From: a virus
Lineage: Duplodnaviria > Caudoviricetes
DNA: 64,000 nucleotides
Reading direction: 5' to 3' (one strand)
IMG/VR virus record: IMGVR_UViG_3300042363_000275
Span: 10,862-74,861 of that record
The position numbers were made by a program, and so were the translations under genes. Of the stretch, positions 5,720-33,785 are shown piece after piece; the stretch's first letter is position 1; the number at the start of each line of letters is the position of its first letter. The notes under the pieces are model-generated. The model worked only from the letters and a program-made list of their open reading frames with translations, made no database searches and had not been told where the DNA came from.

Positions 5720-5746
5720 AAAAAAAGGGGGACCCGAAGGTCCCCC
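5720..5746 (-). terminator. Rho-independent terminator with UUCG tetraloop
   Basis: GGGGGACC-TTCG-GGTCCCCC followed by T7 on the minus strand. Confidence 0.95.
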
Positions 5747-5752
5747 AGGCAA

Positions 5753-5956
5753 TTACTCCGTGATAATATCGGTCGTTTCGCCGCTACCGTCGTCGGTAAT
5801 CTCTTCGACCCAGCGTGTTAGTTCGCTCTCGCGGTATAACTTGAGTGCCTTTTCGCGGCTCTTGGTCGTGAGAATTTGCTTATTCCCTCTGACTCGCGCT
5901 CCTGTAATTGGGTGGTTGACTATGGCGTTTTCGTATACTTCGTAATAGATTTTCAT
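5753..5956 (-). CDS. small hypothetical protein
   Basis: ORF track, with the start trimmed to ATG at 5956. It has its own promoter and terminator. Confidence 0.65.
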   Translation of the reverse strand: MKIYYEVYENAIVNHPITGARVRGNKQILTTKSREKALKLYRESELTRWVEEITDDGSGETTDIITE

Positions 5957-6024
5957 ACTCAACCATTATAGTACAAAACCTATAATTTGTAAACACAAAA
6001 AACTCTAATAAAATCAATGACTTG
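5957..6024 (-). promoter_or_regulatory. sigma70-type early promoter with IHF site (copy 3)
   Basis: TTTACA (5993-5988), 17 bp, TATAAT (5970-5965). IHF site 6012-6024. Confidence 0.8.
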
Positions 6025-6030
6025 TGCAAA

Positions 6031-7065
6031 CTATTGATTTTTATAGATATATTCTACAAATTGGCTCGCCGACTTTTTCCAGTTCTTATCTTTTACGCTC
6101 AGATGAGTTGAGCCGCGATCAACTTCGAGGGCGAAACAAACAGCAGTAGACAAATCTACATCAACGAACCCATTCACACCATTTTGAATTTGATCAATTG
6201 GTCCTGTTACTGGGTAAGCAGCTACTGGTGTTCCGCATGCCATCGCTTCAAGAATCACGATTCCATAAGTGTCTACTCTACTTGGAAATACAAACACATC
6301 TGCGAGTTGATAACATCTTGCCAACTCTTCACCGAATTTATATCCAAGAAATCGAATGTGTGGATATTTCTTTTGCAATTTCTTTCTATATGGTCCATCA
6401 CCGACGATAACTTTAATAACTTCTACCGATGGCGCAACGCAACTAGAAACATCTAATTCACAAAATGCATCTAGATTCTTTTCTTTACTCACACGCCCAG
6501 CGTATAATAGAACAACTCTGTTGTCCTTGTATTTGTCATTGAATCGAAAATGGAAGTCATATCCCTTATCAAGAACAACTGAGTTCCAATTTGAATTTTC
6601 TTTCGCGTTAGATTCAGAGGAACACATCACATACTTTGCGTTCTTATGAAACCAGTTGAAGTACCATTTAGTCCACGAAACTGGAACACCGAACATCTCA
6701 TTAAAGAACTCTGGGAACTTCGTATGGTAAGAAGTCGTATACTGTATTCCAAGTTTCTCAAGAACTCGTTTGGCTTGTAGACCAAGAATGCCTTCCGTGG
6801 CAATGTGGTACTTTGTGTCATATCCTAGCATATGCCAATGCTCATCTCGCGTTTCAATTATTTTAAACATCTTCTTGTAACTGCAAAATGGAAGCGGCAC
6901 TTCTTTATAGAATGGCACTTTGATATTGCTGAATAATCCTGGATGAATAACATCAACTGTTATTTCAGGAGGCAAATTTGCAATAATGTTCTTATAGGTG
7001 GTTACAACACCATTTACTTGCGGTTCCCAAGCATCTGTAATGAGAACTATTTTCGTCCGAGCCAT
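6031..7065 (-). CDS. agt: GT4 glycosyltransferase, Agt-like diacylglycerol glycosyltransferase
   Basis: ITDAWEPQVNGVV, HIATEG.LG, TTSYHTKFPE, GRVSKEKNL and ADVFVFPSRVDTYG...LEAMACGTPVAAYPVTGP. These motifs resemble the Agt family as recalled. The gene overlaps the plcP-like gene. Confidence 0.75.
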   Translation of the reverse strand: MARTKIVLITDAWEPQVNGVVTTYKNIIANLPPEITVDVIHPGLFSNIKVPFYKEVPLPFCSYKKMFKIIETRDEHWHMLGYDTKYHIATEGILGLQAKRVLEKLGIQYTTSYHTKFPEFFNEMFGVPVSWTKWYFNWFHKNAKYVMCSSESNAKENSNWNSVVLDKGYDFHFRFNDKYKDNRVVLLYAGRVSKEKNLDAFCELDVSSCVAPSVEVIKVIVGDGPYRKKLQKKYPHIRFLGYKFGEELARCYQLADVFVFPSRVDTYGIVILEAMACGTPVAAYPVTGPIDQIQNGVNGFVDVDLSTAVCFALEVDRGSTHLSVKDKNWKKSASQFVEYIYKNQ

Positions 7066-7790
7066 TCTATAATCTCCCATGTTCCGTCATAATGTTCAAC
7101 TAATGCTGTGCAGGATTCTACCCAGTCTCCATCGTTCATGTATTCAATGCCGTTGATTGTTTTAATCTCTGCTCTATGAACATGACCGCAGATTACGCCA
7201 TCGGCTTTTTGCTTTTTGCAATAATCTGTAATTAGATCTTCGAAGTTGTTTACATACGAAACCGCTTCTTTCGTTTTGTTCTTAAGATACTGGCTTAAAC
7301 TCCAATGTGGCATGTTAAACCAGTTACGAACTTTACTTACAAGGACATTTAATTTTAACAAAACATTATACAGCATGTCGCCAAGATGGTATAGCCACTG
7401 AAGTTTGGTTCTTAATACACCATCGAATAGATCGCCATGAATCACCATATAGGTTTTGCCATTGACACCCTCATGGCGGCATTGATTCACAAGATCGATG
7501 TTGCCAAAATGAATGTCGAATGGCAATAGATCGCGAAATGCATCGTCGTGATTGCCAACAACATAGGTGACTTTGGTATTGTTCTTTGCGGCTTTGAGAA
7601 TTTTACGAATCACATCAGTGTGTGATTGCAGCCAATAGAATTTTCTTTTTAACCGCCAGCCGTCGATAATATCGCCGACGAGATATAGATTTTCGCTTGA
7701 GTTATTTTTCAAAAAATCGCATAGCAAATCGGCTTTACATCCCCGAGATCCTAGATGGACATCGGAAATAAAGATTGATTTGAATTGCAT
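7047..7790 (-). CDS. plcP: metallophosphoesterase, PlcP-like phospholipase C (often annotated as LpxH-like)
   Basis: ISDVHLG, LVGDIIDGW, GNHD, IHGD.FD, ICGHVH and NDGDWVESCTALVE. GNHD rather than the GNRD of LpxH. Confidence 0.8.
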   Translation of the reverse strand: MQFKSIFISDVHLGSRGCKADLLCDFLKNNSSENLYLVGDIIDGWRLKRKFYWLQSHTDVIRKILKAAKNNTKVTYVVGNHDDAFRDLLPFDIHFGNIDLVNQCRHEGVNGKTYMVIHGDLFDGVLRTKLQWLYHLGDMLYNVLLKLNVLVSKVRNWFNMPHWSLSQYLKNKTKEAVSYVNNFEDLITDYCKKQKADGVICGHVHRAEIKTINGIEYMNDGDWVESCTALVEHYDGTWEIIEWLGRK

Positions 7791-7849
7791 TGGAGACTCC
7801 CAGAACTGGAGTCAGTATATAGCGCAAAAATATTACGATTAGATTAAAA
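7791..7849 (-). promoter_or_regulatory. plcP promoter: -10 box, candidate Pho box, SD-sequestering hairpin
   Basis: TATACT at 7819-7814 with no canonical -35. 11-bp-phased TTTTAAT/TCGTAAT at 7849-7832. Hairpin GACTCC/GGAGTC (7813-7795) covers the SD. Confidence 0.55.
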
Positions 7850-7860
7850 TTCGGTTCATC

Positions 7861-7966
7861 TTCCCCCCACTGCGCAATGGGTGCTAGATTGTACTTTTCT
7901 AGCGGGATCCTATAAAACTCAGCGCCGTGCGCATGACCTCTACACCGAAAGGTTGAGGCGAGTGTT
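7861..7966 (-). ncRNA. candidate structured RNA
   Basis: Non-coding and GC-richer, with several hairpins and closing helices. It lies just downstream of a late-promoter motif. Confidence 0.4.
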
Positions 7967-7968
7967 GT

Positions 7969-7975
7969 TATTTAG
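7969..7975 (-). promoter_or_regulatory. T4-like late promoter core CTAAATA
   Basis: Matches the gp55-type (T/C)TAAATA motif and is intergenic. Confidence 0.55.
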
Positions 7976-7979
7976 TAAA

Positions 7980-12553: not shown

Positions 12554-13812
12554 ATTTTTACTGGGTGTGGTCTACGCTTATCAGACTTAATGGCAACTAG
12601 CCAAGCATCTGTGATTGCAATATTATCGCTTCGTGGTTCCCACCAAAAGGTATCAAGTTTAAATTCCTGAAACCGAATCTTGTCGTTACGAATAAACATT
12701 GCCTTATCTTTTCTGGTGTAATACCAGAAGCAGTTCTCGTTCCAGTAACTCACATGCGTTGGGTCTTGAAATGCGCCGCGACCATCTGTTGAAGGCACCT
12801 GTATGAATACCCAACCATCATCAGCAAGAACACGGTAGATCTCAGCCATAATCTTGTGTTTATCGTTAAGATGCTCTATAATATGCGAAGCGTTGATTAC
12901 ACCAACGCTGTTATCTGGAAGCGGAATGCCATTATTAAGGTCAGCGGTAACATTACCATCTTCTAAATCAATATTGATATTGCATCCAGCCCGAGGATTA
13001 ATTCCTCCGCCTAATTCTACAATATCCAACCCTCTGTCTTTCGCATCTTTACACGCAAGATCCCATGCATACTGCTTAAACAACTCTCTAGTTGTATCTT
13101 GAATTGCTTGATTTCTTTCTAACCAAGTATTGTTACCAGTAATCCTGTAAACATACAGGGGCTTATTGATATGATGCATCTTGGTGTTCAAGTATGTGCG
13201 AATAACCAATTCATGATCATCGCATATATCTAGATTTACATTATGACCACCAATGGACACATAAACACTTTTACGCCATGCTCGAACATGGTCAGGCGCA
13301 TACCAGATATACGCCATGCTGTGGCTTGTTGGTGCAAAAGAATTCATTGAGTAATGTTCTTTGCCACGCCACATGACTTTTTTATAAGTCCACCCATAAT
13401 GAGCATCGTATGGTGTAAATTCATTGTTTACATGATAGGTGATACTATCACTGTATACAAATCCAACAGTAGGATCTTGAAATGCTTTGTATAATTCTTC
13501 TAAGCAATCTGGTGTGAGCATATCATCATGATCGACCTCAACAAGAACATCACCTGTTCCTAGATGAAAGGCTTTGTTCTTATTGAAGCCGATTTTAGAA
13601 TTGATCTCATCACTCACAACAATTTTAATGCGCTCATCAGACTTAATGGCAACTAGCACTGGGTAATTTACTAGAGCATCCAAACCACCTTCCACACCAT
13701 TCAAATAAATCACCCACTCCCAGTTCTCATAAGTTTGAGCAACAAGACTCTCATACAAGTCACCCAGAAACGAGTTCTTCAGGTGAGTGGGTGTTATAAT
13801 GCTAAATTTCAC
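12550..13812 (-). CDS. GT2 glycosyltransferase fused to SAM methyltransferase
   Basis: GTG start overlaps the nrdJ stop. FSIITPTH and EVDHDD at the N-terminus. ELGGG and HIIEHL...EIYRVL...QVP...AFQDPTH at the C-terminus. Confidence 0.8.
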   Translation of the reverse strand: MKFSIITPTHLKNSFLGDLYESLVAQTYENWEWVIYLNGVEGGLDALVNYPVLVAIKSDERIKIVVSDEINSKIGFNKNKAFHLGTGDVLVEVDHDDMLTPDCLEELYKAFQDPTVGFVYSDSITYHVNNEFTPYDAHYGWTYKKVMWRGKEHYSMNSFAPTSHSMAYIWYAPDHVRAWRKSVYVSIGGHNVNLDICDDHELVIRTYLNTKMHHINKPLYVYRITGNNTWLERNQAIQDTTRELFKQYAWDLACKDAKDRGLDIVELGGGINPRAGCNINIDLEDGNVTADLNNGIPLPDNSVGVINASHIIEHLNDKHKIMAEIYRVLADDGWVFIQVPSTDGRGAFQDPTHVSYWNENCFWYYTRKDKAMFIRNDKIRFQEFKLDTFWWEPRSDNIAITDAWLVAIKSDKRRPHPVKI

Positions 13813-15695
13813 AGTTCGCAGACTCCTGCCGAGCAAGCCAATTCTTTTGCTGAAGTTGTTGTATCTGTTTCTTCCATAAACTCTACCCAATTGATATCCA
13901 CATTTTGGCGAGCAAGAAGTTCGTTATACAACGATTCATCAATTTCTTCGTAAGGTGCTTGACGATATGAACCGTTGTCGCGTGGGAGGAAAGAAACACC
14001 TGAAAGAATCGAGATGTTCTTGTAAACCCATGCACCAACTTCCATCCACTCATCATCACCAACATATACAGTGATAGATGGCTTGTGTTCACACCAGTGG
14101 TCTTGATAGATCTTCCAAAGTTCCAACTGTTCAATCGCAGTCATGTCGTTGCGTGTAACAGAGTTCTTTGGTGCCTTCATTGGGAATGAGAACACCCAAT
14201 TTGACTTGCTGTAGAAATCTTCCTCAGCAAAGTATCCCTTGTTAATCATAAACTGAGCAAGAGGATCCTTCATATCAGCCCTAACTCTACGAATATAATA
14301 TTGGGCATAGCGTGGGTGAATGCCTGAAGCGGAATCAACCAACTGTGATACAGTACCTGAAGGTTTGACGCAAGTAATTGCAGCCGACTGTGGAACACCA
14401 AGAGCATGTGCGAATTCCTTATTTGTTTCAACGCAATGAAGTCTGATAGCATCCAATGCATCAGCAAGTTTTTGTGATGGCTTATTAAGCAACTTGTTAT
14501 CACAAATACCAGTAAAGGAAACGCCAAGCAGTCTTTCTTCATCGCAATTATTCTTCCACTTCTTATTGATGTAGCGGAAGTCTGTTAGCGTTGACTGAAG
14601 TGTACCAATGATTGTAGCGAGACGTGCCTTACGCTTCAATGATTCAACATCATCGTTTGCGCGAACAACGATCTCAGAAAGATTACAGAACTCAAATGGG
14701 CGCAAGATAATTTCAGAACATGGGTTTGTGCCGAACTCATGCTTCGGATCACGACGACCGTTCTTTGCAGCAACAGCCTGTGAAGCAGCACGAGAAAAGA
14801 TACCACGCTCGCCAGACTTTGACATATAAAGAGCATGCCATTCATTCATGAATGTATCCATGTCTACTCGTTTGTCATACACTGCCGAAATATTTGCAAG
14901 TGCTCTTTGCCCATTGTGCGTCCACCAGTCACCTGACTTTGCATGACGCAACTGGTCATCGTTGAGGTCAGTTAGAGAAATGAGAGCAGAACGGCGAACA
15001 CCACCGCAAACAACAATATCAGCAATCTTGCATACAATGTCATGGCACTCCAAGGTAGACAGTTTCCTGCCTCTTGCCTTTGTAAAGATATTGAGAGTGA
15101 ATTTGAATAGATCGACCAATGGTTCTGGACCAGATGCGCGACCACCAAATACCTTTAGACGCTCACCTGCTGGGCGAACCTTTGATACATCCCACTTCGC
15201 GATCTTACCAGAATACAGAAGCGAAACGATTTCACGATAAGCAGAAGCCCAGCCAATCTTAGAATCAGCAACGACAACGGTTGTGTCTGTTTCGTGTAGT
15301 TCTTCTGGAACTTCTGGAAGTTTGTTAGTGTACTTTGATTCAACAGAGAAACCAACACCTGTTCCGCACATTAGAACATACATGATTTCATCAAATGCTT
15401 TTGTATTATCAATGGCAACATACGAGCAATTATAACCAGCGACTTGATCCTTTTCCAAAGCAGGTCCTGCGGTCATCAAGCAACGCATTGATGGCATGAC
15501 TTCTAGGTTTAAAATAGCAGTGCGCAATTCATCCCAAGGAACTTTCTTATTGTTGTCTGTTTTGCTCTTAAAATAACTGATGTATCTGTCAACAGTTTCA
15601 TCCCATGTTTCTCGACGACCTAGATCATCGTTGAATCGTGCATATCTGGAAATGTGAATGAAATCTTGATAGATGCTAGGAAGTCTCGTAGCCAT
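13809..15695 (-). CDS. nrdJ: class II (adenosylcobalamin-dependent) ribonucleotide reductase
   Basis: PSMR, YNC, GTGVGFS, GGVRRSA, TNPCSEI, CNLSE, VKPSGTVS, CEHKPS and C-terminal CSAGVC. No beta-subunit gene is adjacent. Confidence 0.9.
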   Translation of the reverse strand: MATRLPSIYQDFIHISRYARFNDDLGRRETWDETVDRYISYFKSKTDNNKKVPWDELRTAILNLEVMPSMRCLMTAGPALEKDQVAGYNCSYVAIDNTKAFDEIMYVLMCGTGVGFSVESKYTNKLPEVPEELHETDTTVVVADSKIGWASAYREIVSLLYSGKIAKWDVSKVRPAGERLKVFGGRASGPEPLVDLFKFTLNIFTKARGRKLSTLECHDIVCKIADIVVCGGVRRSALISLTDLNDDQLRHAKSGDWWTHNGQRALANISAVYDKRVDMDTFMNEWHALYMSKSGERGIFSRAASQAVAAKNGRRDPKHEFGTNPCSEIILRPFEFCNLSEIVVRANDDVESLKRKARLATIIGTLQSTLTDFRYINKKWKNNCDEERLLGVSFTGICDNKLLNKPSQKLADALDAIRLHCVETNKEFAHALGVPQSAAITCVKPSGTVSQLVDSASGIHPRYAQYYIRRVRADMKDPLAQFMINKGYFAEEDFYSKSNWVFSFPMKAPKNSVTRNDMTAIEQLELWKIYQDHWCEHKPSITVYVGDDEWMEVGAWVYKNISILSGVSFLPRDNGSYRQAPYEEIDESLYNELLARQNVDINWVEFMEETDTTTSAKELACSAGVCEL

Positions 15696-19915: not shown

Positions 19916-21949
19916 CTATTTAGAAGTGGCACGATAAACTCCGTCCCAATTCACAGGCGGTTTGCCATCCATTCTCTCGTCCATCATCTCATAGTATTTA
20001 GCCATTTCACCATCCCATAACACTTTCATTGCAGGGACCAAATTCCTAGCAATTTTCCAGTTACCTGCACGATAATGTAACAGGAAGTTTTCGTGCATAT
20101 AGAGAGCTGATTTGTCGTCATCAGGCGCGATCGTGAAGATCTTTACAGGTTCAGTTTTACCCTTCACCGCAATTAGATCTAATTCGATAACTGGGAACTC
20201 ACCCTTCACATACTCTGCAGTTTTAGGACCAATGACAATTTTAACACCATAAGGTTTAGATTGACCTTCGAGGCGAGCTGCTAGGTTAACTCCATCTCCC
20301 AAACAAGTGTAGTCAAACCTTTGTGTAGAACCCATATTGCCAACAACCACAGTATCGGTATTAATACCCAATCCCATGCCGAATGCTGGAACACCTTCTT
20401 TAGCAATTTCTTCATTGAATTTCTCCAGATCCTTGAGCATTGCTAAACCAGTACGAACAGCATTCTTTGCGTGCTGTGCATCATCCAATGGTGCATTCCA
20501 AAATGCCATCTGAGCATCGCCGATATACTTGTCCAGCGTGCCTTGATTTTCAATAATCCTTGCAGTCATTGCCGTCATATAACGATTCATGATTGCAGTC
20601 AGACCTTGAACATTCTTGCCGTAGTGCTCAGAAATTGTTGTGAATCCACGCACATCAGTAAACATGATTGAAAGTTCACGTGACTCACCGCCGAGTGCAA
20701 GTAACTCTGGATTCTTTTGTAGTTTTTCAACCATAGCTGGTGAAAGATAAGTGCCAAACTGCTTCTTAATTTGTTGCTTCTGTAGGAACTCAGAAACAAA
20801 CTTCACACCATAAGCATGAAGTGCAACAAGAATTAATCCTAAAGTAACAGCTGTTGGATCAAATAAGAACAACGAAGTCTTAAACGCATACAAACTATAT
20901 GCTACACCAGAGCCAATTAGAATCACAGTTGATGCGAGTCCAACATAAACCCAACGCGATAGCCCTATTAGCAATAGACCAGCAAGTAAAAGTGCAAGAA
21001 TTTCAAGTGACTCTGCATAATCTGGACGCTGAATGTTCACGCCGTTAATCATCGTTGCCACAACAGCAGCTTGCATATCCTGCGGCATCACTGGACCAAT
21101 TGCTGTCGGCACTGGGTTTGCTAAACCTGCTGCAGAAACACCAACGATAACTAATGCACCGTCAAATTTTTCTGGTAGATCTACCATCGAAACCTTTTTA
21201 TTCTTTTGCGACCAGTCTACCCACACACGACCATAAGAGTCTGTTGATACTGGACCGAACTGTGGAATGCGCATTTTCTCAACACCAAACTCATTCAGTT
21301 TAACTTGAAAGTTTGGATCACCTGCCATCACACGGAGGATTTCTAAAGATAGATGTGGATAAAGAATGCCATTAACAGAAACAATTAATGGCACTCGACG
21401 ATTCACACCGTCAATTTCTGGAAGAGTGTGTGTTGCACCAACGCCTGCTGCAGCGTTTTCGAGTTCAGGAATATTCGCAATGATTCCTGGATACTGTAAA
21501 ATCGTATCTTCGAACTCAGAACCAATAATTGCTGCGCCTGGATTTTTCGGCGAGTTCTTTGTTGCTGTTGATGGAACATTTGGAAGAATAACTGGTGCTT
21601 GTTGCATCACATCGAGTAATGCTTGGTCACCACCTAGACGATCAGATTCTGGCATGAGCACATTGAAAACAACTAACCCTGCGCCCCGATTATAAAGTTC
21701 AGCAATTAAATTTGCATACACATCACGCTTAAATGGATATTGCCCATACTTTTCCAAAGCAGCTTCGTCGATGTTTACGGTATAAACATTGTTTTCTGTT
21801 ACTGGTTTGTTTGCAATAAGAGTATCAAAATATCGGAGTCGGACGGACTCTACGAATTGAGGGTCAGATACTCTGATAGATAATACTATAGCAAGAGTTA
21901 ATAACGCAGTCCAAGCACTGAGTGCAACTTTATTCAATAACTTTTTCAT
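19916..21949 (-). CDS. CHASE2-domain class III adenylate/guanylate cyclase
   Basis: N-terminal TM, CHASE2 sensor (VNIDE, DGVNRRVPL) and TM bundle. Catalytic motifs FTDVRGFT, DKYIGDA, GIN.D.VVVGNMGS..RFDYT.LGDGVNLAARLE. Confidence 0.92.
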   Translation of the reverse strand: MKKLLNKVALSAWTALLTLAIVLSIRVSDPQFVESVRLRYFDTLIANKPVTENNVYTVNIDEAALEKYGQYPFKRDVYANLIAELYNRGAGLVVFNVLMPESDRLGGDQALLDVMQQAPVILPNVPSTATKNSPKNPGAAIIGSEFEDTILQYPGIIANIPELENAAAGVGATHTLPEIDGVNRRVPLIVSVNGILYPHLSLEILRVMAGDPNFQVKLNEFGVEKMRIPQFGPVSTDSYGRVWVDWSQKNKKVSMVDLPEKFDGALVIVGVSAAGLANPVPTAIGPVMPQDMQAAVVATMINGVNIQRPDYAESLEILALLLAGLLLIGLSRWVYVGLASTVILIGSGVAYSLYAFKTSLFLFDPTAVTLGLILVALHAYGVKFVSEFLQKQQIKKQFGTYLSPAMVEKLQKNPELLALGGESRELSIMFTDVRGFTTISEHYGKNVQGLTAIMNRYMTAMTARIIENQGTLDKYIGDAQMAFWNAPLDDAQHAKNAVRTGLAMLKDLEKFNEEIAKEGVPAFGMGLGINTDTVVVGNMGSTQRFDYTCLGDGVNLAARLEGQSKPYGVKIVIGPKTAEYVKGEFPVIELDLIAVKGKTEPVKIFTIAPDDDKSALYMHENFLLHYRAGNWKIARNLVPAMKVLWDGEMAKYYEMMDERMDGKPPVNWDGVYRATSK

Positions 21950-27830: not shown

Positions 27831-30800
27831 TTAAAACAGCAAGAACATATTACTGAAATTTTCACCAACAACAGCGATTGGATAATACACGATAATTATA
27901 CCACCAGATTGTCCAGCAGTTCCTGGATTTGCGAAATCGCTATCAGTAGCACCAGAACCACCAGCACCACCACCAATATTCAATTCATCTCTGACGCCTG
28001 GACCAACTGCACCGCCACCACCGCCGCCACCAGCACCACCGATGCTACCTAAAATATCATAACTAGCTCTGCCTCGTTCTCTGCCACCAGATATTCCACC
28101 GAATGTTGTTCCCAAACCACCTATTCCGCCAGCGCGAGTTCCAGCAAAATTATTTCCACCTGTGCCTGGAGTCACTGTAGATGCGTTTGTGCCGTTGGTT
28201 CCTCCACTTGAACCACCGCCGCCAGCACCAGCGCATGTGCTTGGAGCGCCACCAATAGTACCTGTGCCGCCATTTGCGCCAGCACCATTTGGTCCGCCTG
28301 ATCCACCGCCACCACCACCAGAGGAATTGTTAGTTGCAGATGCAGCACCTCCACCCAAGCCACCAATGCCTCCATTGGCTGTAGCACCTGTGCCGCCTGT
28401 TCCTGCTGTAGTGGTTGAAGCTGTTATTGATGACCCACCACCACCATTAGCAGTGTAAATGCTTGCAAAGGTTGTATTGCCACCAGCACCTCCACTGCTG
28501 CTAAGATTATTAGCTGAACCCGCTGCTCCACCTGAACCTATACTATAGGACAGTGAACTTCCAGGAGTTGATGTTAAGTTTAGAACTTGTGTGTATCCAC
28601 CACCACCGCCGCCAGCAGAACCTAATCTATTTCCAGAAGAATTAGGAACATAAGAACCAGAAGAACCACCACCAGCACCGTAAATGTGTATAGCATTATT
28701 TGAATTATTCCAATCAGCGGGAACTGTGAATGAAGTTCCACTGGTAATGTAATATACAACAGGAGCACTGTTACTATATTCTTGGAACACAGCACCCAAT
28801 GTATCGCCATTGTTTATAGAATTAGCCAGATATAATCGCCATGGCGTAGTTCCATCACCTGAGAATGTATTGGCAGTATTGGTGATGAAAACAATGCTGT
28901 TGGTTTGAACATAACTTGCAGTTTGAATGCTAGAATTAGATATAATAACATTTGCTCTAAATGGTGCAGCAGTTGCAGTTGTTGGACCTAAATCTAATAC
29001 TTTGTTACTTGCGCTACCACCAACTATACCCGCAAAAGTAACAGTATTGCCAGTTGGAAGAATTATGCTGGCATTAGCCGTTGTATTTGCATAACTCGAT
29101 TTGATGCGGTTGAAGGTGTTAAGTCCAGTGATTGTTAAAGCACCAGCACCACCTTGATCAATATCACAATTATAGATCGCGTTGTTACCAACGAATGTTT
29201 TGGCTGTCGCAGCGGTCAATGATATGGTACCTGTACCTGTTCCTGCTGTCGTTGTAAATCCAGCAGGAACGGCATTATTGAATGTTGTTGCTGATGCTGT
29301 AGGACAAACAAGTGTTCCGCCATTAAATGTTAAGTTCTTAGTTCCAGCAGCAGTCGTATAAGATGTACCAACTGTCAGCGTGTAACCATTAAGGTCGATT
29401 GTTCCATTAGTGTGTGTAAATGCTCGTGTTGAGCCTATGGTGAAATTGCTGAGTAATTGGAAGGTTCCGTCAGCACCGTCAACAATCACTGGGAAATCTA
29501 GTGTTCTGCCACCAGTAGATAATGTTTTTGAACCAGAGCCAACAAAACTTGTAACGCTGGTACCTGCTGACAATGAACCGCCAGTGGATGGTATTGTAAA
29601 ATTACCGTAGATAAATCTGGTGCTATTACCAAATGTTCCAAGAAACCCAGTTAAATCAAAATTATTATACGAGCCAATTAATGCATGTGCATCTGTTGCT
29701 ATTGCTAACGCTATGCCCGCAGGAATGACAGTAGATACATCAGTACCAGTTCCACCAACTCCAGAAACAATAGCGCTGTTAAAAGCACCACCAGCACCGC
29801 CAGTAGAAGTAAGTGTTGTGCCATCAAATGTTACTGTTGTGTTTCCACCTGCTGAGCCATTATTAGCTCCCGAACCACCAGCGCCACCCGTTCCAATACT
29901 ATAAGTGATAGTTCCAGTGTTGGCGCTAGACATTAATGAAATGCCGCCAGCCCCACCACCACCACCTGCAGTAGCATCTGTTGTTGCACCAGCACCACCA
30001 CCACCTGCACCAATAGCCCAAATTTTAATAAAGGTGGTGTTTGCAGGGATGCTATAACTTGTGCCAGATGTTAAGACATTATATGTTGGCGTTCCACTTA
30101 CAGTCATTTGCAATACGATTGCACCATCACCACCAGTTCCACCTGTTCTTGCAGTACCATTAAATCCTGCTGCGCCACCACCACCACCACCTAAGAAGCC
30201 ATTACCGCCATTACCGCCATAGTAACCAGCACCACCACCACCTGCACCAAAGCCAGTGGCGTTACCACCATTGATTGCATTAGCAGGACTAGTGGCTGTT
30301 CCACCAGCAGTGCCTGCACCACTACCGATTGTATATCCAGCGGCAGTTACTGCCGTAAACAACGAATTACCGCTAGCAGTATTCGCAGCACCGCCTGTGT
30401 ATCCACCATTCACATCAACAGTTGTACCAACACCGCCGCCAATACCACCACCACCGCCACCACCATCATCGCTAGATTCAGCGTTACCATTGCCACCAGT
30501 AGTGGTAATTATTTCGAGTGTTGTGACGCTAAAAATATTATTTGAATTCGCTCCCGCAGTTCCACCAATGTTAAATGTTCTTGTGCCAGTAGCACCATTG
30601 TATGCGCTAACAATTCTAGGTGTACCAGTGTAACTAAAATTTGTCATAGTAGTAAGATCTACTATTGTAGCATTGTTTCCTACTAAAGTAATTCGACCAG
30701 TAGTGCCAAATGCAACAGATCTTACACCAGTGCCACTACTACTGAATGTTGCAGCAGATAGCGTAAGATTGTTTAGGTTCAGAGCACCCGCTGTAAGTGT

Positions 30801-33785
30801 GAATGTTCTAGTAGAACCTAGCGTCAAATTATTTAAAAAGTTAAGTGTGCCACCAACACTGTTGCAGGTAATTGGAAAATCTATGGTACGCTGAATGTTT
30901 ATGTCAACTGATATACCAGCTGTAATGCTTGTGACTAAAGCGCCAGCAGTAAAAGTTCCGCCAGATGCAGGTATGGTTAAATTTCCATAAAGTGATCTTG
31001 TAGAATTATCTATTGTGCTAGTATTGTTTGTAAAATCAGCATTATAATATACACCAGATAATGTAACAGTATCCGTAGCAGGGGTAATTACAAGTCCAGT
31101 GCCGCTGCTACCAAAACTTAAATCAAACACATTTGTAGATGTCGCGCCAGCTGTACCGCCAATATCAAATGTTCTTGTACCAGTTGCACCGTTATATGTA
31201 CAGTAAATTCTAGGCGTACCAGTATAAGTAAAATTGGTTATATTAGTCATACTTACAGTAGATGCACTGTTACCAACCAGTGTAATTTGACCTGTGGTGC
31301 CAAATGCTATTACTCTAGTAGTGGTAGCACTAGAATCTAAAAATCCAGCAGTAAGCGTAAAATTATTTAAATTAAGTGTACCATTTTCTAATGTTACTGT
31401 TCTTGCTGAACCTAGTGTTAGTGCACCTGCTAGCACAAATGTTCCACCAACACCATCAAATGTCATCGGGAAATCAAGTGTTCTGCCGTTAGTTGTAATC
31501 GTTGCAGTGCCAGTATCACTAAATGTTGTAACACTAGTGCCTGCTGAGTATGTTCCACCAGAAGCAGGTATAGTTAAATCGCCAAAAATAGATCTTCTTG
31601 TACTACTTAATGTTCCTGTAAATCCAGTGAAGTCTATGCTATTGAAGCCACCTGTAAGTGCTATTGTATCAGTTGCAGGCGTGATCACAAGTCCAGTGCC
31701 GCTGCTACCGAAACTCACATCAAATATATTTGTGGATGTAGCGCCAGCTGTACTGCCGAAAGTAAATGTTCTAGTGCCAGTAGCGCCGTTATATGTACTG
31801 TAAATTCTAGGAGTGCCAGTATATGTGAAACTGGTCATACTCGTCATGAGTACAATATTTGTACCGTTACCAACCAGTGTAATTTGACCTGTGGTGCCAA
31901 ATGCTATTACTCTAGCAACGCTACCAGAAGAACTTAAAGTTGCAGCAGTAAGTGTAAAATCATTTAAATTAAGTGTACCATTGTCTAATGTTGCTGTTCT
32001 TGTTGAACCTAGTGTTAATGCACCTGCTAGCACAAATGTGCCGCCTACACCAGCAAAAGTAATAGGAAAATCAAGTGTTCTGCCATTCGTAGTAATAGTT
32101 TCAGTGCCAGTACCAGCAAAAGTGGTAATATTTGTACCTGCCGTAAACGTGCCGCCACTGGCAGGCACAGTTAAATCACCAAAAATAGTTCTTGTTGTAT
32201 TACTTAATGTTCCTGTAAATCCAGTCAAATTAACTGTATTAAAACTACCAGTTAATGCAACAATATCAGTTGCACTTGGACTCAATACAATGCCAGTAGT
32301 TCCACTAGTAGCAACATTATATCCTGCCGCTTGCGCTTCTGTAAAGCCTGTTACAATGGTGCGTGTGCCAACACTACCAGTATATGTAGAATTAATATAA
32401 ACAGTACCAGATGTTGTAAAATTGGTTGCTGTAGTAACATTAAAGATTGTTACACCATTGCCAGTCAACGCCAGCTGACCAGTGCCAAAGTTTAATGTTC
32501 TGGAACTAGAACCACTGCTACCGAATAATGTAGTGGTTAATGTGAATGTACTTAATGCTAAAGTGCCTGCTGTAAATGTATAACCACTTGCTGAACTTGT
32601 AGTAATATTAAATGGTAATGTAAACGATCCACTAGTATGTGTAAATGGTAATGTTGTTGTAAAACTACCTGTACCTGTGTTTAATAGTGTTGGTGTGCCT
32701 GTTGATATTGTAATACCAGCAGCAGAAATAGTTTTGCTGTTTATATCAAACGAACCATTGCTTAATGTCAGTTGCCTAGTTGCACCTAGTGTTAGGTTGT
32801 TTGCTAATGTCCAGGTAGCAGTGCTAGTTGCGCTGCCAAATGTCCATGGAAAATCATAAGTGAAGCCAGCAATATTATTAATCGTAAAACTGCCACTTGT
32901 AGCAGCAAATGTCCATGCATTTGCACCAGCTGTAAATGTAGTAGTTCCGTTTGTGGTTAAGTGAGTAAATGCTCCATAAATTATCAAGTTAATATTACTT
33001 ACTGTTTGCACACCATTTACGATTAAATTTCTTACAACATTACTTGCTGAAAATGCATAGGTTGTACCTGTCACAGTATTCAATAAACTAAAACTTATTG
33101 AGTTTGCTTCTGACGGTGCGCCTGTATTAATAGTTTTGGTAACTCCTGTGCCAGTGGTTACACATTCTACTAGTGGAGTTCCGCTTATTGTAAGGTTAGT
33201 TGTTGTTCCAGTAGTCCAAATTGTGCTTGTTGTTGCACTAGTTAATACAATTTTACCTGTACCAAAATTCAATACTCTTGTATTGCTATTGCTTGAGTTG
33301 AATAATCCTGTCGTTAATGTATGACTACCTAATGCCAGTGTACCTGATGTAACTGTAAAAGTGCTTGTGCTACTTAATGTTAGATTATCTTGTAATGTTT
33401 TTGTTCCACCTGCTCCACTTACTGTCATACTGCAATTAAAAGTTGTGCCGCCGCTTGTAATTGTTTTTGATGTAGTCGCTGATAATGTTATGGTGCCAGT
33501 ACTATTCCATGTAGTTGTACCTGCTGTAATTGCTACATTACCTGCTACTGTTAATGTTGGGGTAGTACCAGTAGCAAATGTTACTGTACCTGTGCTAACT
33601 GTTATATCTAAACAGGCTAATGCGCCTGTCATGGTTACAGTATATGTGCCTGCCTGGTCAAAGAAAACACTATCTGCTACTGTCGGCACGCTGGCACCAC
33701 TGGGACCGCCGCTGCTGGCGCTCCAGTTAGTTGTGCTTGTTGTATTCCATGTGCCTGTGCCACCAACCCAATATCTATCTGCCAT
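27831..33785 (-). CDS. giant Thr/Gly-rich fibre or adhesin-like virion protein
   Basis: 1984 aa, with about 198-aa tandem beta-rich repeats and two glycine-rich domains. Confidence 0.75.
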   Translation of the reverse strand: MADRYWVGGTGTWNTTSTTNWSASSGGPSGASVPTVADSVFFDQAGTYTVTMTGALACLDITVSTGTVTFATGTTPTLTVAGNVAITAGTTTWNSTGTITLSATTSKTITSGGTTFNCSMTVSGAGGTKTLQDNLTLSSTSTFTVTSGTLALGSHTLTTGLFNSSNSNTRVLNFGTGKIVLTSATTSTIWTTGTTTNLTISGTPLVECVTTGTGVTKTINTGAPSEANSISFSLLNTVTGTTYAFSASNVVRNLIVNGVQTVSNINLIIYGAFTHLTTNGTTTFTAGANAWTFAATSGSFTINNIAGFTYDFPWTFGSATSTATWTLANNLTLGATRQLTLSNGSFDINSKTISAAGITISTGTPTLLNTGTGSFTTTLPFTHTSGSFTLPFNITTSSASGYTFTAGTLALSTFTLTTTLFGSSGSSSRTLNFGTGQLALTGNGVTIFNVTTATNFTTSGTVYINSTYTGSVGTRTIVTGFTEAQAAGYNVATSGTTGIVLSPSATDIVALTGSFNTVNLTGFTGTLSNTTRTIFGDLTVPASGGTFTAGTNITTFAGTGTETITTNGRTLDFPITFAGVGGTFVLAGALTLGSTRTATLDNGTLNLNDFTLTAATLSSSGSVARVIAFGTTGQITLVGNGTNIVLMTSMTSFTYTGTPRIYSTYNGATGTRTFTFGSTAGATSTNIFDVSFGSSGTGLVITPATDTIALTGGFNSIDFTGFTGTLSSTRRSIFGDLTIPASGGTYSAGTSVTTFSDTGTATITTNGRTLDFPMTFDGVGGTFVLAGALTLGSARTVTLENGTLNLNNFTLTAGFLDSSATTTRVIAFGTTGQITLVGNSASTVSMTNITNFTYTGTPRIYCTYNGATGTRTFDIGGTAGATSTNVFDLSFGSSGTGLVITPATDTVTLSGVYYNADFTNNTSTIDNSTRSLYGNLTIPASGGTFTAGALVTSITAGISVDINIQRTIDFPITCNSVGGTLNFLNNLTLGSTRTFTLTAGALNLNNLTLSAATFSSSGTGVRSVAFGTTGRITLVGNNATIVDLTTMTNFSYTGTPRIVSAYNGATGTRTFNIGGTAGANSNNIFSVTTLEIITTTGGNGNAESSDDGGGGGGGIGGGVGTTVDVNGGYTGGAANTASGNSLFTAVTAAGYTIGSGAGTAGGTATSPANAINGGNATGFGAGGGGAGYYGGNGGNGFLGGGGGGAAGFNGTARTGGTGGDGAIVLQMTVSGTPTYNVLTSGTSYSIPANTTFIKIWAIGAGGGGAGATTDATAGGGGGAGGISLMSSANTGTITYSIGTGGAGGSGANNGSAGGNTTVTFDGTTLTSTGGAGGAFNSAIVSGVGGTGTDVSTVIPAGIALAIATDAHALIGSYNNFDLTGFLGTFGNSTRFIYGNFTIPSTGGSLSAGTSVTSFVGSGSKTLSTGGRTLDFPVIVDGADGTFQLLSNFTIGSTRAFTHTNGTIDLNGYTLTVGTSYTTAAGTKNLTFNGGTLVCPTASATTFNNAVPAGFTTTAGTGTGTISLTAATAKTFVGNNAIYNCDIDQGGAGALTITGLNTFNRIKSSYANTTANASIILPTGNTVTFAGIVGGSASNKVLDLGPTTATAAPFRANVIISNSSIQTASYVQTNSIVFITNTANTFSGDGTTPWRLYLANSINNGDTLGAVFQEYSNSAPVVYYITSGTSFTVPADWNNSNNAIHIYGAGGGSSGSYVPNSSGNRLGSAGGGGGGYTQVLNLTSTPGSSLSYSIGSGGAAGSANNLSSSGGAGGNTTFASIYTANGGGGSSITASTTTAGTGGTGATANGGIGGLGGGAASATNNSSGGGGGGSGGPNGAGANGGTGTIGGAPSTCAGAGGGGSSGGTNGTNASTVTPGTGGNNFAGTRAGGIGGLGTTFGGISGGRERGRASYDILGSIGGAGGGGGGGAVGPGVRDELNIGGGAGGSGATDSDFANPGTAGQSGGIIIVYYPIAVVGENFSNMFLLF
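29400..32500 (-). repeat. about 590-bp tandem intragenic repeats
   Basis: A 50-bp exact duplicate at 31269-31318 and 31866-31915 gives a period of 597 bp. Diverged copies lie near 30675 and 32460. Boundaries are approximate. Confidence 0.85.

Follow-up and report, generated by a model that had tools for sequence, protein, structure and literature searches.

The window analyzed here, a stretch of 64,000 nucleotides, is part of a 74.9-kb IMG/VR contig (IMGVR_UViG_3300042363_000275) that CheckV estimates to be 45% complete. On its minus strand lie two overlapping open reading frames (ORFs), plcP (7047–7790, 247 amino acids) and agt (6031–7080, 349 amino acids). The first encodes a PlcP-family metallophosphoesterase, predicted from sequence, profiles, a tree and a structural model to be an intracellular phospholipase C making diacylglycerol, and the second a putative glycosyltransferase of family 4 (GT4) from the Agt/GTcp clade. 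A first-pass annotation had seen an overlapping two-gene unit here, and this is borne out by both ORFs as well as by the motifs it quoted, namely GNHD at residues 79–82 of the first protein and DAWEPQVNGVV (16–26), HIATEG (92–97) and SYHTKFPE (117–124) in the second. As the longest possible ORFs, the two genes overlap by 34 nucleotides (nt). The second ATG of agt, at 7065, is probably a more likely start than the ATG at 7080, because a GGGAG Shine-Dalgarno sequence (7075–7079, minus strand, within the 3' end of plcP) lies 8 nt upstream of it and several homologues begin there; this start would give 344 amino acids and an overlap of 19 nt. With an overlap of either length, plcP and agt are therefore predicted to be translationally coupled. 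Taking all the evidence below into account, we put at about 75% the probability that these two genes represent the bacterial plcP-agt ("type 2") operon for lipid renovation, carried by a phage and retained as an auxiliary metabolic module.

In Pfam, the first protein is recognized only as a generic metallophosphoesterase (Metallophos, E 4.7e-11). The motif set expected of such enzymes is DxH, GD, GNH[D/E], H and GHxH, and the corresponding metal ligands (D10/H12, D40, N80-H81-D82, H118 and H203/H205) are invariant in an alignment of 26 sequences. The protein is 46% identical to the PlcP homologue of Sinorhizobium meliloti (E 3e-90) and 47% identical to PA3219 of Pseudomonas aeruginosa (E 7e-65). 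Both references were taken from records filed as plasmids, one a 3.7-Mb S. meliloti replicon and the other P. aeruginosa chromosomal segments. PA3219 was identified by its position, directly upstream of a glycosyltransferase gene and cyaB. The S. meliloti gene adjoins genes for a LuxR-type regulator and an N-acyl homoserine lactone (AHL) synthase, which we take to be sinR/sinI, and hence the gene itself to be SMc00171. The S. meliloti record, CP090106.1, bears the label plasmid pSymB; since the LuxR-type regulator and AHL synthase genes adjoin its plcP homologue, this replicon seems to be the chromosome. Published identities of PA3219 to the PlcPs of MED193 and S. meliloti are 47% and 46%, respectively (Jones et al., PMC8528852), so that the phage protein is as close to the characterized PlcPs as these are to each other. 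The criterion of a published PlcP survey was a BLASTP E<1e-40 against MED193 PlcP (PMC4796936); the E-values given above were obtained with the S. meliloti and PA3219 references in place of MED193 PlcP.

Against Escherichia coli LpxH, identity is 18% (E 0.002), and the NCBIfam equivalog models for LpxH give 41 bits against a cut-off of 134 (NF003743) and 33.8 against 190 (TIGR01854). The first-pass annotation had called the gene plcP and not lpxH, and the phylogeny with S. meliloti PlcP and LpxH agrees: a branch supported at 99% in the Shimodaira-Hasegawa-like approximate likelihood-ratio test (SH-aLRT) separates the three LpxH rows in a maximum-likelihood tree, and the phage protein falls on the same side as both characterized PlcPs, at a path length of 3.6 from these and of 22–26 from the LpxH rows. 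The reliance of the first-pass annotation on the third phosphoesterase motif as a marker of PlcP holds less well. GNHD does separate the phage protein from E. coli LpxH, which has GNRD, but it is not diagnostic by itself: an LpxH-like protein from Bacteroidota shares it. The argument for PlcP is therefore carried by phylogeny, model scores and synteny, the last in that agt overlaps the 3' end of plcP, as it does in the bacterial homologues. A neighbour gene for a lipid without phosphorus (agt, btaAB or pgt) is what a plcP gene would be expected to have. In the Croceicoccus, Kordiimonas and Roseomonas genomes that hold homologues, the LpxH model found no other match. An AlphaFold model of the first protein (mean predicted local distance difference test score 77.7) has LpxH structures as its best matches in the PDB at all ranks from 1 to 25 (E ~1e-10, template modelling score ~0.55, 16–19% identity), as would be expected of a lipid-directed phosphoesterase distantly paralogous to LpxH. 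A sequence search of the PDB found no PlcP structure, the only match of the first protein being the N-terminus of LpxH (E 0.0095), and no Agt structure. These comparisons support the assignment of the first gene as plcP, not lpxH.

The second protein matches the Pfam families Glycos_transf_1 (E 2.6e-25) and Glyco_transf_4 (E 4e-7); other NCBIfam GT4 models match its C-terminal domain only, far under their cut-offs. Aligned end to end, it shares 38% identity (E 6e-76) with PA3218 (Agt1) of P. aeruginosa, which produces monoglucosyldiacylglycerol (MGDG) on expression in E. coli (PMC8528852), and it is 34–40% identical to the GT4 proteins encoded directly after plcP in Kordiimonas, Croceicoccus, Parvibaculales and Roseomonas. 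Kordiimonas and Erythrobacteraceae enzymes have been placed in one clade with SAR11 GTcp and Agrobacterium Agt, the members of which are >25% identical, as against <25% for other GT4s (Wei et al., PMC8231724). The hallmarks of this clade are a His104-Asp256 dyad, in which Asp takes the place of the Glu normally found in GT4s, two motifs, GRVAxEKN and FPSxTDTFG, and the diacylglycerol-site residues His104, Arg163 and Trp320 (PMC8231724). The phage protein, at 344–349 amino acids, compares with an expected clade length of ~330–350. Its H119 is invariant in an alignment of 76 sequences, and D270, which aligns with the canonical Glu of a solved GT4 structure, is shared with 71 of 76 homologues. 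The UDP-sugar motifs read GRVSKEKN (195–202) and FPSRVDTYG (265–273), with the conservative changes A to S, T to V and F to Y. A Gly-rich motif is also expected of the clade, and E278, G24, G97, G100 and the C-terminal W334 are likewise invariant across the 76 sequences. The Agt-type identity proposed in the first-pass annotation is thus upheld by the 38% identity to Agt1, the dyad, the UDP-sugar motifs and the C-terminal Trp, and the second gene is supported as an Agt/GTcp-clade GT4, predicted to be a diacylglycerol glycosyltransferase.

Relatives of the first gene were collected by a pattern scan of IMG/VR, which returned 112 contigs, 80 of which were fetched and analyzed. The agt gene lies directly downstream of plcP in 46 of the 80, mostly with the same overlap, and follows after an insertion in one more. 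In 11 of the 80, pstS is found directly downstream instead of agt (L066, L067, L071–L074, L076–L078, L093, L099). Neither gene is present in 15 of the 80 despite room for one, and six contigs are too short to judge. The shared slot runs from ribonucleotide reductase through RuvC, two small genes, plcP and a gene X to a conserved AAA-type gene, X being agt in the group of the window and pstS in the sister phages. From these gene orders, plcP-agt and plcP-pstS look like alternative forms of an exchangeable phosphate-stress cassette at a single genomic site. Other viral contigs (L003, L004, L075, L079, L088) have the order pstS-plcP-agt, with a fatty-acid desaturase gene one gene further on. One of these contigs is 357 kb long; on it, a homologue 73% identical to the phage protein occurs in this order with the desaturase nearby, among genes with no Pfam match. 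Judging by their gene content, the pstS-plcP-agt-desaturase loci may form a larger membrane-lipid island.

The phage PlcP belongs to an all-viral clade of 22–27 representatives with 96–98% support. Its nearest bacterial neighbors in the tree are alphaproteobacterial plcP-agt genes, and the best match in a bacterial genome is 59% identical, in a bacterial sampling that is biased by the pattern scan. Comparisons with relatives give ratios of nonsynonymous to synonymous substitution rates of 0.02–0.06 for plcP and 0.07–0.18 for agt, so that strong purifying selection acts on both. In phages the two genes are conserved, with linkage to, or exchange with, pstS.

Upstream of plcP, on the minus strand, two Pho-box-like tandem heptamers can be read from the sequence (7832–7849), TTTTAAT at 7849–7843 and TCGTAAT at 7838–7832. 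They repeat with an 11-bp period at the expected -35 position, and a -10-like box, TATATACT (7814–7821, minus strand, likewise read from the sequence), follows 10 nt after the second. TATA(T/A)A(T/A) is kept at the -10 position throughout the phage lineage, and the layout of heptamers and -10 box recurs in diverged relatives. When 90 unique 100-nt stretches upstream of plcP are compared, 23 contain a relaxed dimer, KTMAY-N6-KTMAY, against an expected ~0.6% from the background of the same loci, an enrichment to be taken as a suggestive lead only, since the motif was picked post hoc and many of the loci are related. Most of these matches begin 51–58 nt before the plcP ATG. Canonical Pho boxes of the TGTCAT type are found upstream of more distant viral plcP genes (L069, L081, L084). 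As read from these sequences, the plcP cassette probably responds to the host PhoB through heptamers that take the place of a -35 element.

Between this putative promoter and plcP, ViennaRNA folds a hairpin, GACTCC-N7-GGAGTC (7795–7813, minus strand), that pairs the plcP Shine-Dalgarno sequence and so covers the ribosome-binding site (RBS). Its free energy is -9 kcal/mol with a z-score of about -2.3, each sequence having been folded singly. The hairpin is kept in diverged relatives in which both arms have changed (GTGCTC/GAGCAC, ATGCTCC/GGAGCAT and CTGACTCC/GGAGTCAG), and it is present in plcP-agt and plcP-pstS cassettes alike. RNAalifold, run on a MAFFT alignment of the upstream regions in which the hairpins are misaligned, gave no consensus structure, and the fold of the whole intergenic region (7788–7979) is unremarkable, with z = -1.2. 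The RBS hairpin may add a second level of control. Another, GC-rich hairpin, CCCATTGCGCAGTGGG (7858–7879, minus strand), occupies part of the spacer that precedes the plcP promoter and is kept in close relatives; in L044 both of its arms are changed (CTCATTGCGCAATGAG), and it lacks a T-run.

In bacteria, PlcP converts phospholipid to diacylglycerol and a phosphorylated head group, and Agt converts diacylglycerol and a UDP-sugar to MGDG or glucuronic acid diacylglycerol (PMC4796936, PMC8528852, PMC8231724). The reactions expected of the two families are hydrolysis of phosphatidylethanolamine, phosphatidylglycerol or phosphatidylcholine to diacylglycerol, and transfer of Glc, GlcA or Gal from a UDP-sugar onto it. 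In the mechanism that we propose for the phage, PlcP, as a Mn-type enzyme that combines an LpxH-like fold with a helical lipid lid, would remove the phosphorylated head group and leave diacylglycerol. The coupled Agt would then move a hexose or hexuronic acid from a UDP-sugar onto the diacylglycerol, so that the bilayer would be kept as glycolipid until lysis. Host enzymes would pass the released phospho-head groups into the phosphate pool used by phage DNA synthesis, and phage yield in phosphorus-poor water would rise; at least one further host step would be needed to yield inorganic phosphate, because the head group released by PlcP is not free phosphate. The first-pass annotation had the phage liberating phosphate from host membranes, which was right about the family of the enzyme and has to be amended as to its product. 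The cassette would probably be switched on by PhoB, the phosphate-starvation regulator of the host, acting through the tandem heptamers, with the RBS hairpin as a possible second control. The enzyme activities, the substrates and the sugar used are inferred, as are regulation by Pho and the gain for the phage. Loci with plcP alone or with plcP-pstS argue for phosphate economy as the core function. More tentatively, and with the odds slightly against it, the variants could be interchangeable cassettes (plcP-agt, plcP-pstS, pstS-plcP-agt) at one slot, wired to PhoB and gated by the RBS hairpin, that turn membrane phospholipid into phosphorus for phage DNA only under starvation and refill the membrane with glycolipid.

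Several observations weigh against a phage lipid-renovation operon working in this way. Each heptamer mismatches the consensus CTGTCAT at 3 of its 7 positions, and the dimer enrichment carries the limits given above. The S. meliloti and P. aeruginosa reference sequences come from strains other than those of the published experiments. The predicted lid of the PlcP model, residues 120–180, has low model confidence. In the phage Agt, the equivalent of Arg163 is Lys172, preceded by Asp and not Thr. Of 51 viral sequences, 35 have Lys where Arg163 would be, whereas all 25 bacterial ones have Arg. The characterized Agt1 of P. aeruginosa also aligns Lys there, and Lys172 was therefore counted neither for nor against a diacylglycerol site. 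Neither pstS nor phoH was found on the 45%-complete contig. Finally, the host might or might not have phospholipids to spare or a PlcP of its own.

The alternative that survives best keeps the same enzymes and changes the benefit. The envelope might be remodelled against superinfection, for the sake of receptors or porins, or to keep the membrane stable until lysis, and we regard this as unlikely to be the main benefit. Host lipid remodelling is reported to change membrane proteomes and to affect phage attachment and grazing (PMC9804370; PMC9938194, PMC9457565), and the authors of a study on pelagimyophages propose surface alteration as a role of phage glycosyltransferases (PMC7029224). The phage also bears curli-type export genes and a CHASE2 cyclase gene. 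Yet plcP is repeatedly joined to pstS in other phages, or has agt swapped for pstS in the same slot, and the Pho-box-like sites upstream point to phosphate economy. The 15 viral loci that have enough flanking sequence and carry plcP without agt or pstS also fit head-group release as the core function. The benefits of phosphate economy and of envelope change are compatible with each other.

A less probable alternative, to which we would give only a small chance, is that the families are correctly assigned and the substrates differ: the phosphoesterase might cleave another phosphodiester, such as a different lipid or a nucleotide-linked compound, and the GT4 might use an acceptor other than diacylglycerol. 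The Lys at the diacylglycerol-site position, two insertions of ~8 residues that mark the Agt of the phage subclade, and the poorly defined lid of the PlcP model all leave room for this. They have to be set against identities to the characterized enzymes as high as among those enzymes, the catalytic and UDP-sugar residues and C-terminal Trp that are invariant across the 76 sequences, and an operon arrangement as in bacteria.

A lipopolysaccharide (LPS) module, with LpxH acting in lipid A synthesis and an LPS glycosyltransferase beside it, is very improbable. Such a reading would follow from the databases, as JGI calls the homologues "LpxH", GenBank calls those of Pelagibacter phage Mosig EXVC030M and of S-SRM01 UDP-2,3-diacylglucosamine hydrolase, and KEGG-based virome papers put viral lpxH under LPS biosynthesis; LpxH is also the closest solved fold. 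It is contradicted by the LpxH score far below cut-off, the 18% identity, GNHD in place of GNRD and the 99%-supported split in the tree. One Porticoccaceae genome encodes both a true LpxH (253 bits) and, as its paralogue, a homologue of the phage protein, and the viral gene has agt and pstS, rather than lpx genes, as its partners. Host DNA joined to the phage contig by misassembly or contamination hardly merits consideration: the genes are of bacterial origin, and some distant IMG/VR homologues do group with sequences from bacterial metagenome-assembled genomes (L111 with L007 and L008), but the same slot between the same phage genes recurs in many independently assembled contigs from different samples, the pair has the GC content and strand of its neighbors, and the PlcP protein sits in an all-viral clade, with 59% identity to its nearest bacterial genome match, so that this concern of the first-pass annotation can be set aside.

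Phosphorus often limits phage production, since phage particles are DNA-rich, and the known phage answers, pstS, phoA and phoH, act on external phosphate. In cyanophages, pstS is under the control of the host PhoB. Set beside these phosphate-stress genes of marine T4-like phages (cyanomyophages and pelagimyophages), plcP-agt would likewise consist of host-derived Pho-regulon genes in a variable region, with a direct plcP-pstS linkage in Mosig and many contigs. The difference is that pstS, phoA and phoH import or scavenge external phosphate, whereas plcP-agt would recycle an internal pool, the membrane lipids of the host, and rebuild the membrane. If this is true, PlcP-Agt opens an internal phosphorus reserve, the host membrane phospholipids, while the cell stays intact until lysis. 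The closest homologue in an isolated phage is Mosig_00120 of Mosig EXVC030M, a T4-like pelagimyophage, at 52.5% identity. It lies back to back with pstS and has a Pho-like dimer upstream; it differs in having no adjacent agt and in its annotation as UDP-2,3-diacylglucosamine hydrolase.

Compared with the bacterial PlcP-Agt operon (P. aeruginosa PA3219-PA3218; the type 2 operons of SAR11 HTCC7211 and Erythrobacter NAP1; S. meliloti SMc00171), the phage pair shares the gene order, with agt directly after plcP, the coding overlap and all catalytic motifs, at 46–47% identity for PlcP and 38% for Agt1. A Pho-box-like site lies upstream in the phage, and a Pho-box-type site has been reported for PA3219. 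Peculiar to the phage are the lytic-type, T4-like carrier, a separate all-viral clade, the RBS hairpin, the Lys at the Arg163 equivalent and the two short insertions in Agt, and the replacement of agt by pstS in sister phages. The likeness to LpxH consists in a metallophosphoesterase with an inserted helical lid, the best structural match and the usual automatic annotation, whereas identity, model score, the third motif, clade and genomic partners all differ. The finding is thus a plain homologue of a bacterial operon and a new entry in a known class of phage phosphate-stress genes.

Full-text literature searches that combined plcP with phage, virus or auxiliary-gene terms brought up no description of a phage-encoded PlcP, although subscription journals fell outside their scope and a prior description is possible. 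The matches concerned the effects of host lipid remodelling on phages or grazers. Viral "lpxH" (K03269) is assigned to LPS biosynthesis in two virome papers, one on surface and subsurface Mediterranean water and the other on Lake Baikal, and the genomes of Mosig and S-SRM01 carry the same LpxH-type label. The claim that the pair is uncharacterized as a phage auxiliary system therefore stands as far as a description of phage plcP is concerned, with the qualification that the gene has already been counted in viromes as "lpxH". A phage PlcP would correct a systematic mislabelling of viral "lpxH" that hides a phosphorus-cycle function apparently common in aquatic phages. Should the tentative cassette reading be true, the majority of what virome surveys count as viral "lpxH" would in fact be plcP, and viruses would have a share in the glycolipid-to-phospholipid signal of phosphorus-poor waters.

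As to the setting of the pair, nearly all long ORFs of the window are on the minus strand, and same-strand phage genes stand on both sides of it, including those for ribonucleotide reductase, primase, RuvC, tail fiber, endolysin and virion proteins. Another of these flanking genes encodes a T4-type DNA polymerase that is 52% identical to cyanomyovirus gp43. Judged by this gene content, the contig is genuine phage DNA and its source is an uncultured T4-like aquatic phage. The agt gene is immediately followed by a promoter of the sigma-70 type that is close to consensus, TTTACA-17-TATAAT (5993–5965, minus strand), and then by a 69-amino-acid ORF of no known family (5753–5962, minus strand) and a strong terminator (5746–5727); the 3' side of the plcP-agt unit is therefore predicted to be bounded by these elements (5727–5993). 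Rfam returned no family at gathering score anywhere in the window.

Other genes of the window were seen in passing. The CHASE2 adenylate cyclase (19916–21949, minus strand) has counterparts with 39% identity in Pelagibacter phage HTVC008M and OM43 phage Melnitz; since it is shared with these two only, the phage can be placed close to the pelagimyophage-like T4 group. The class II ribonucleotide reductase (13809–15695, minus strand) is ~60% identical to the enzymes of roseophages and of SAR116 phage HMO-2011 and far less similar to those of other T4-like phages, an affinity that may hint at host range or gene exchange. An ORF of 1984 amino acids is found among the virion genes (27831–33785, minus strand). 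Outside aquatic systems, PlcP-like genes with 41–43% identity to the phage protein occur in MT836169.1, a gut "Bacteriophage sp." from human faeces, and in NZ_OY725790.1, a Parabacteroides plasmid.

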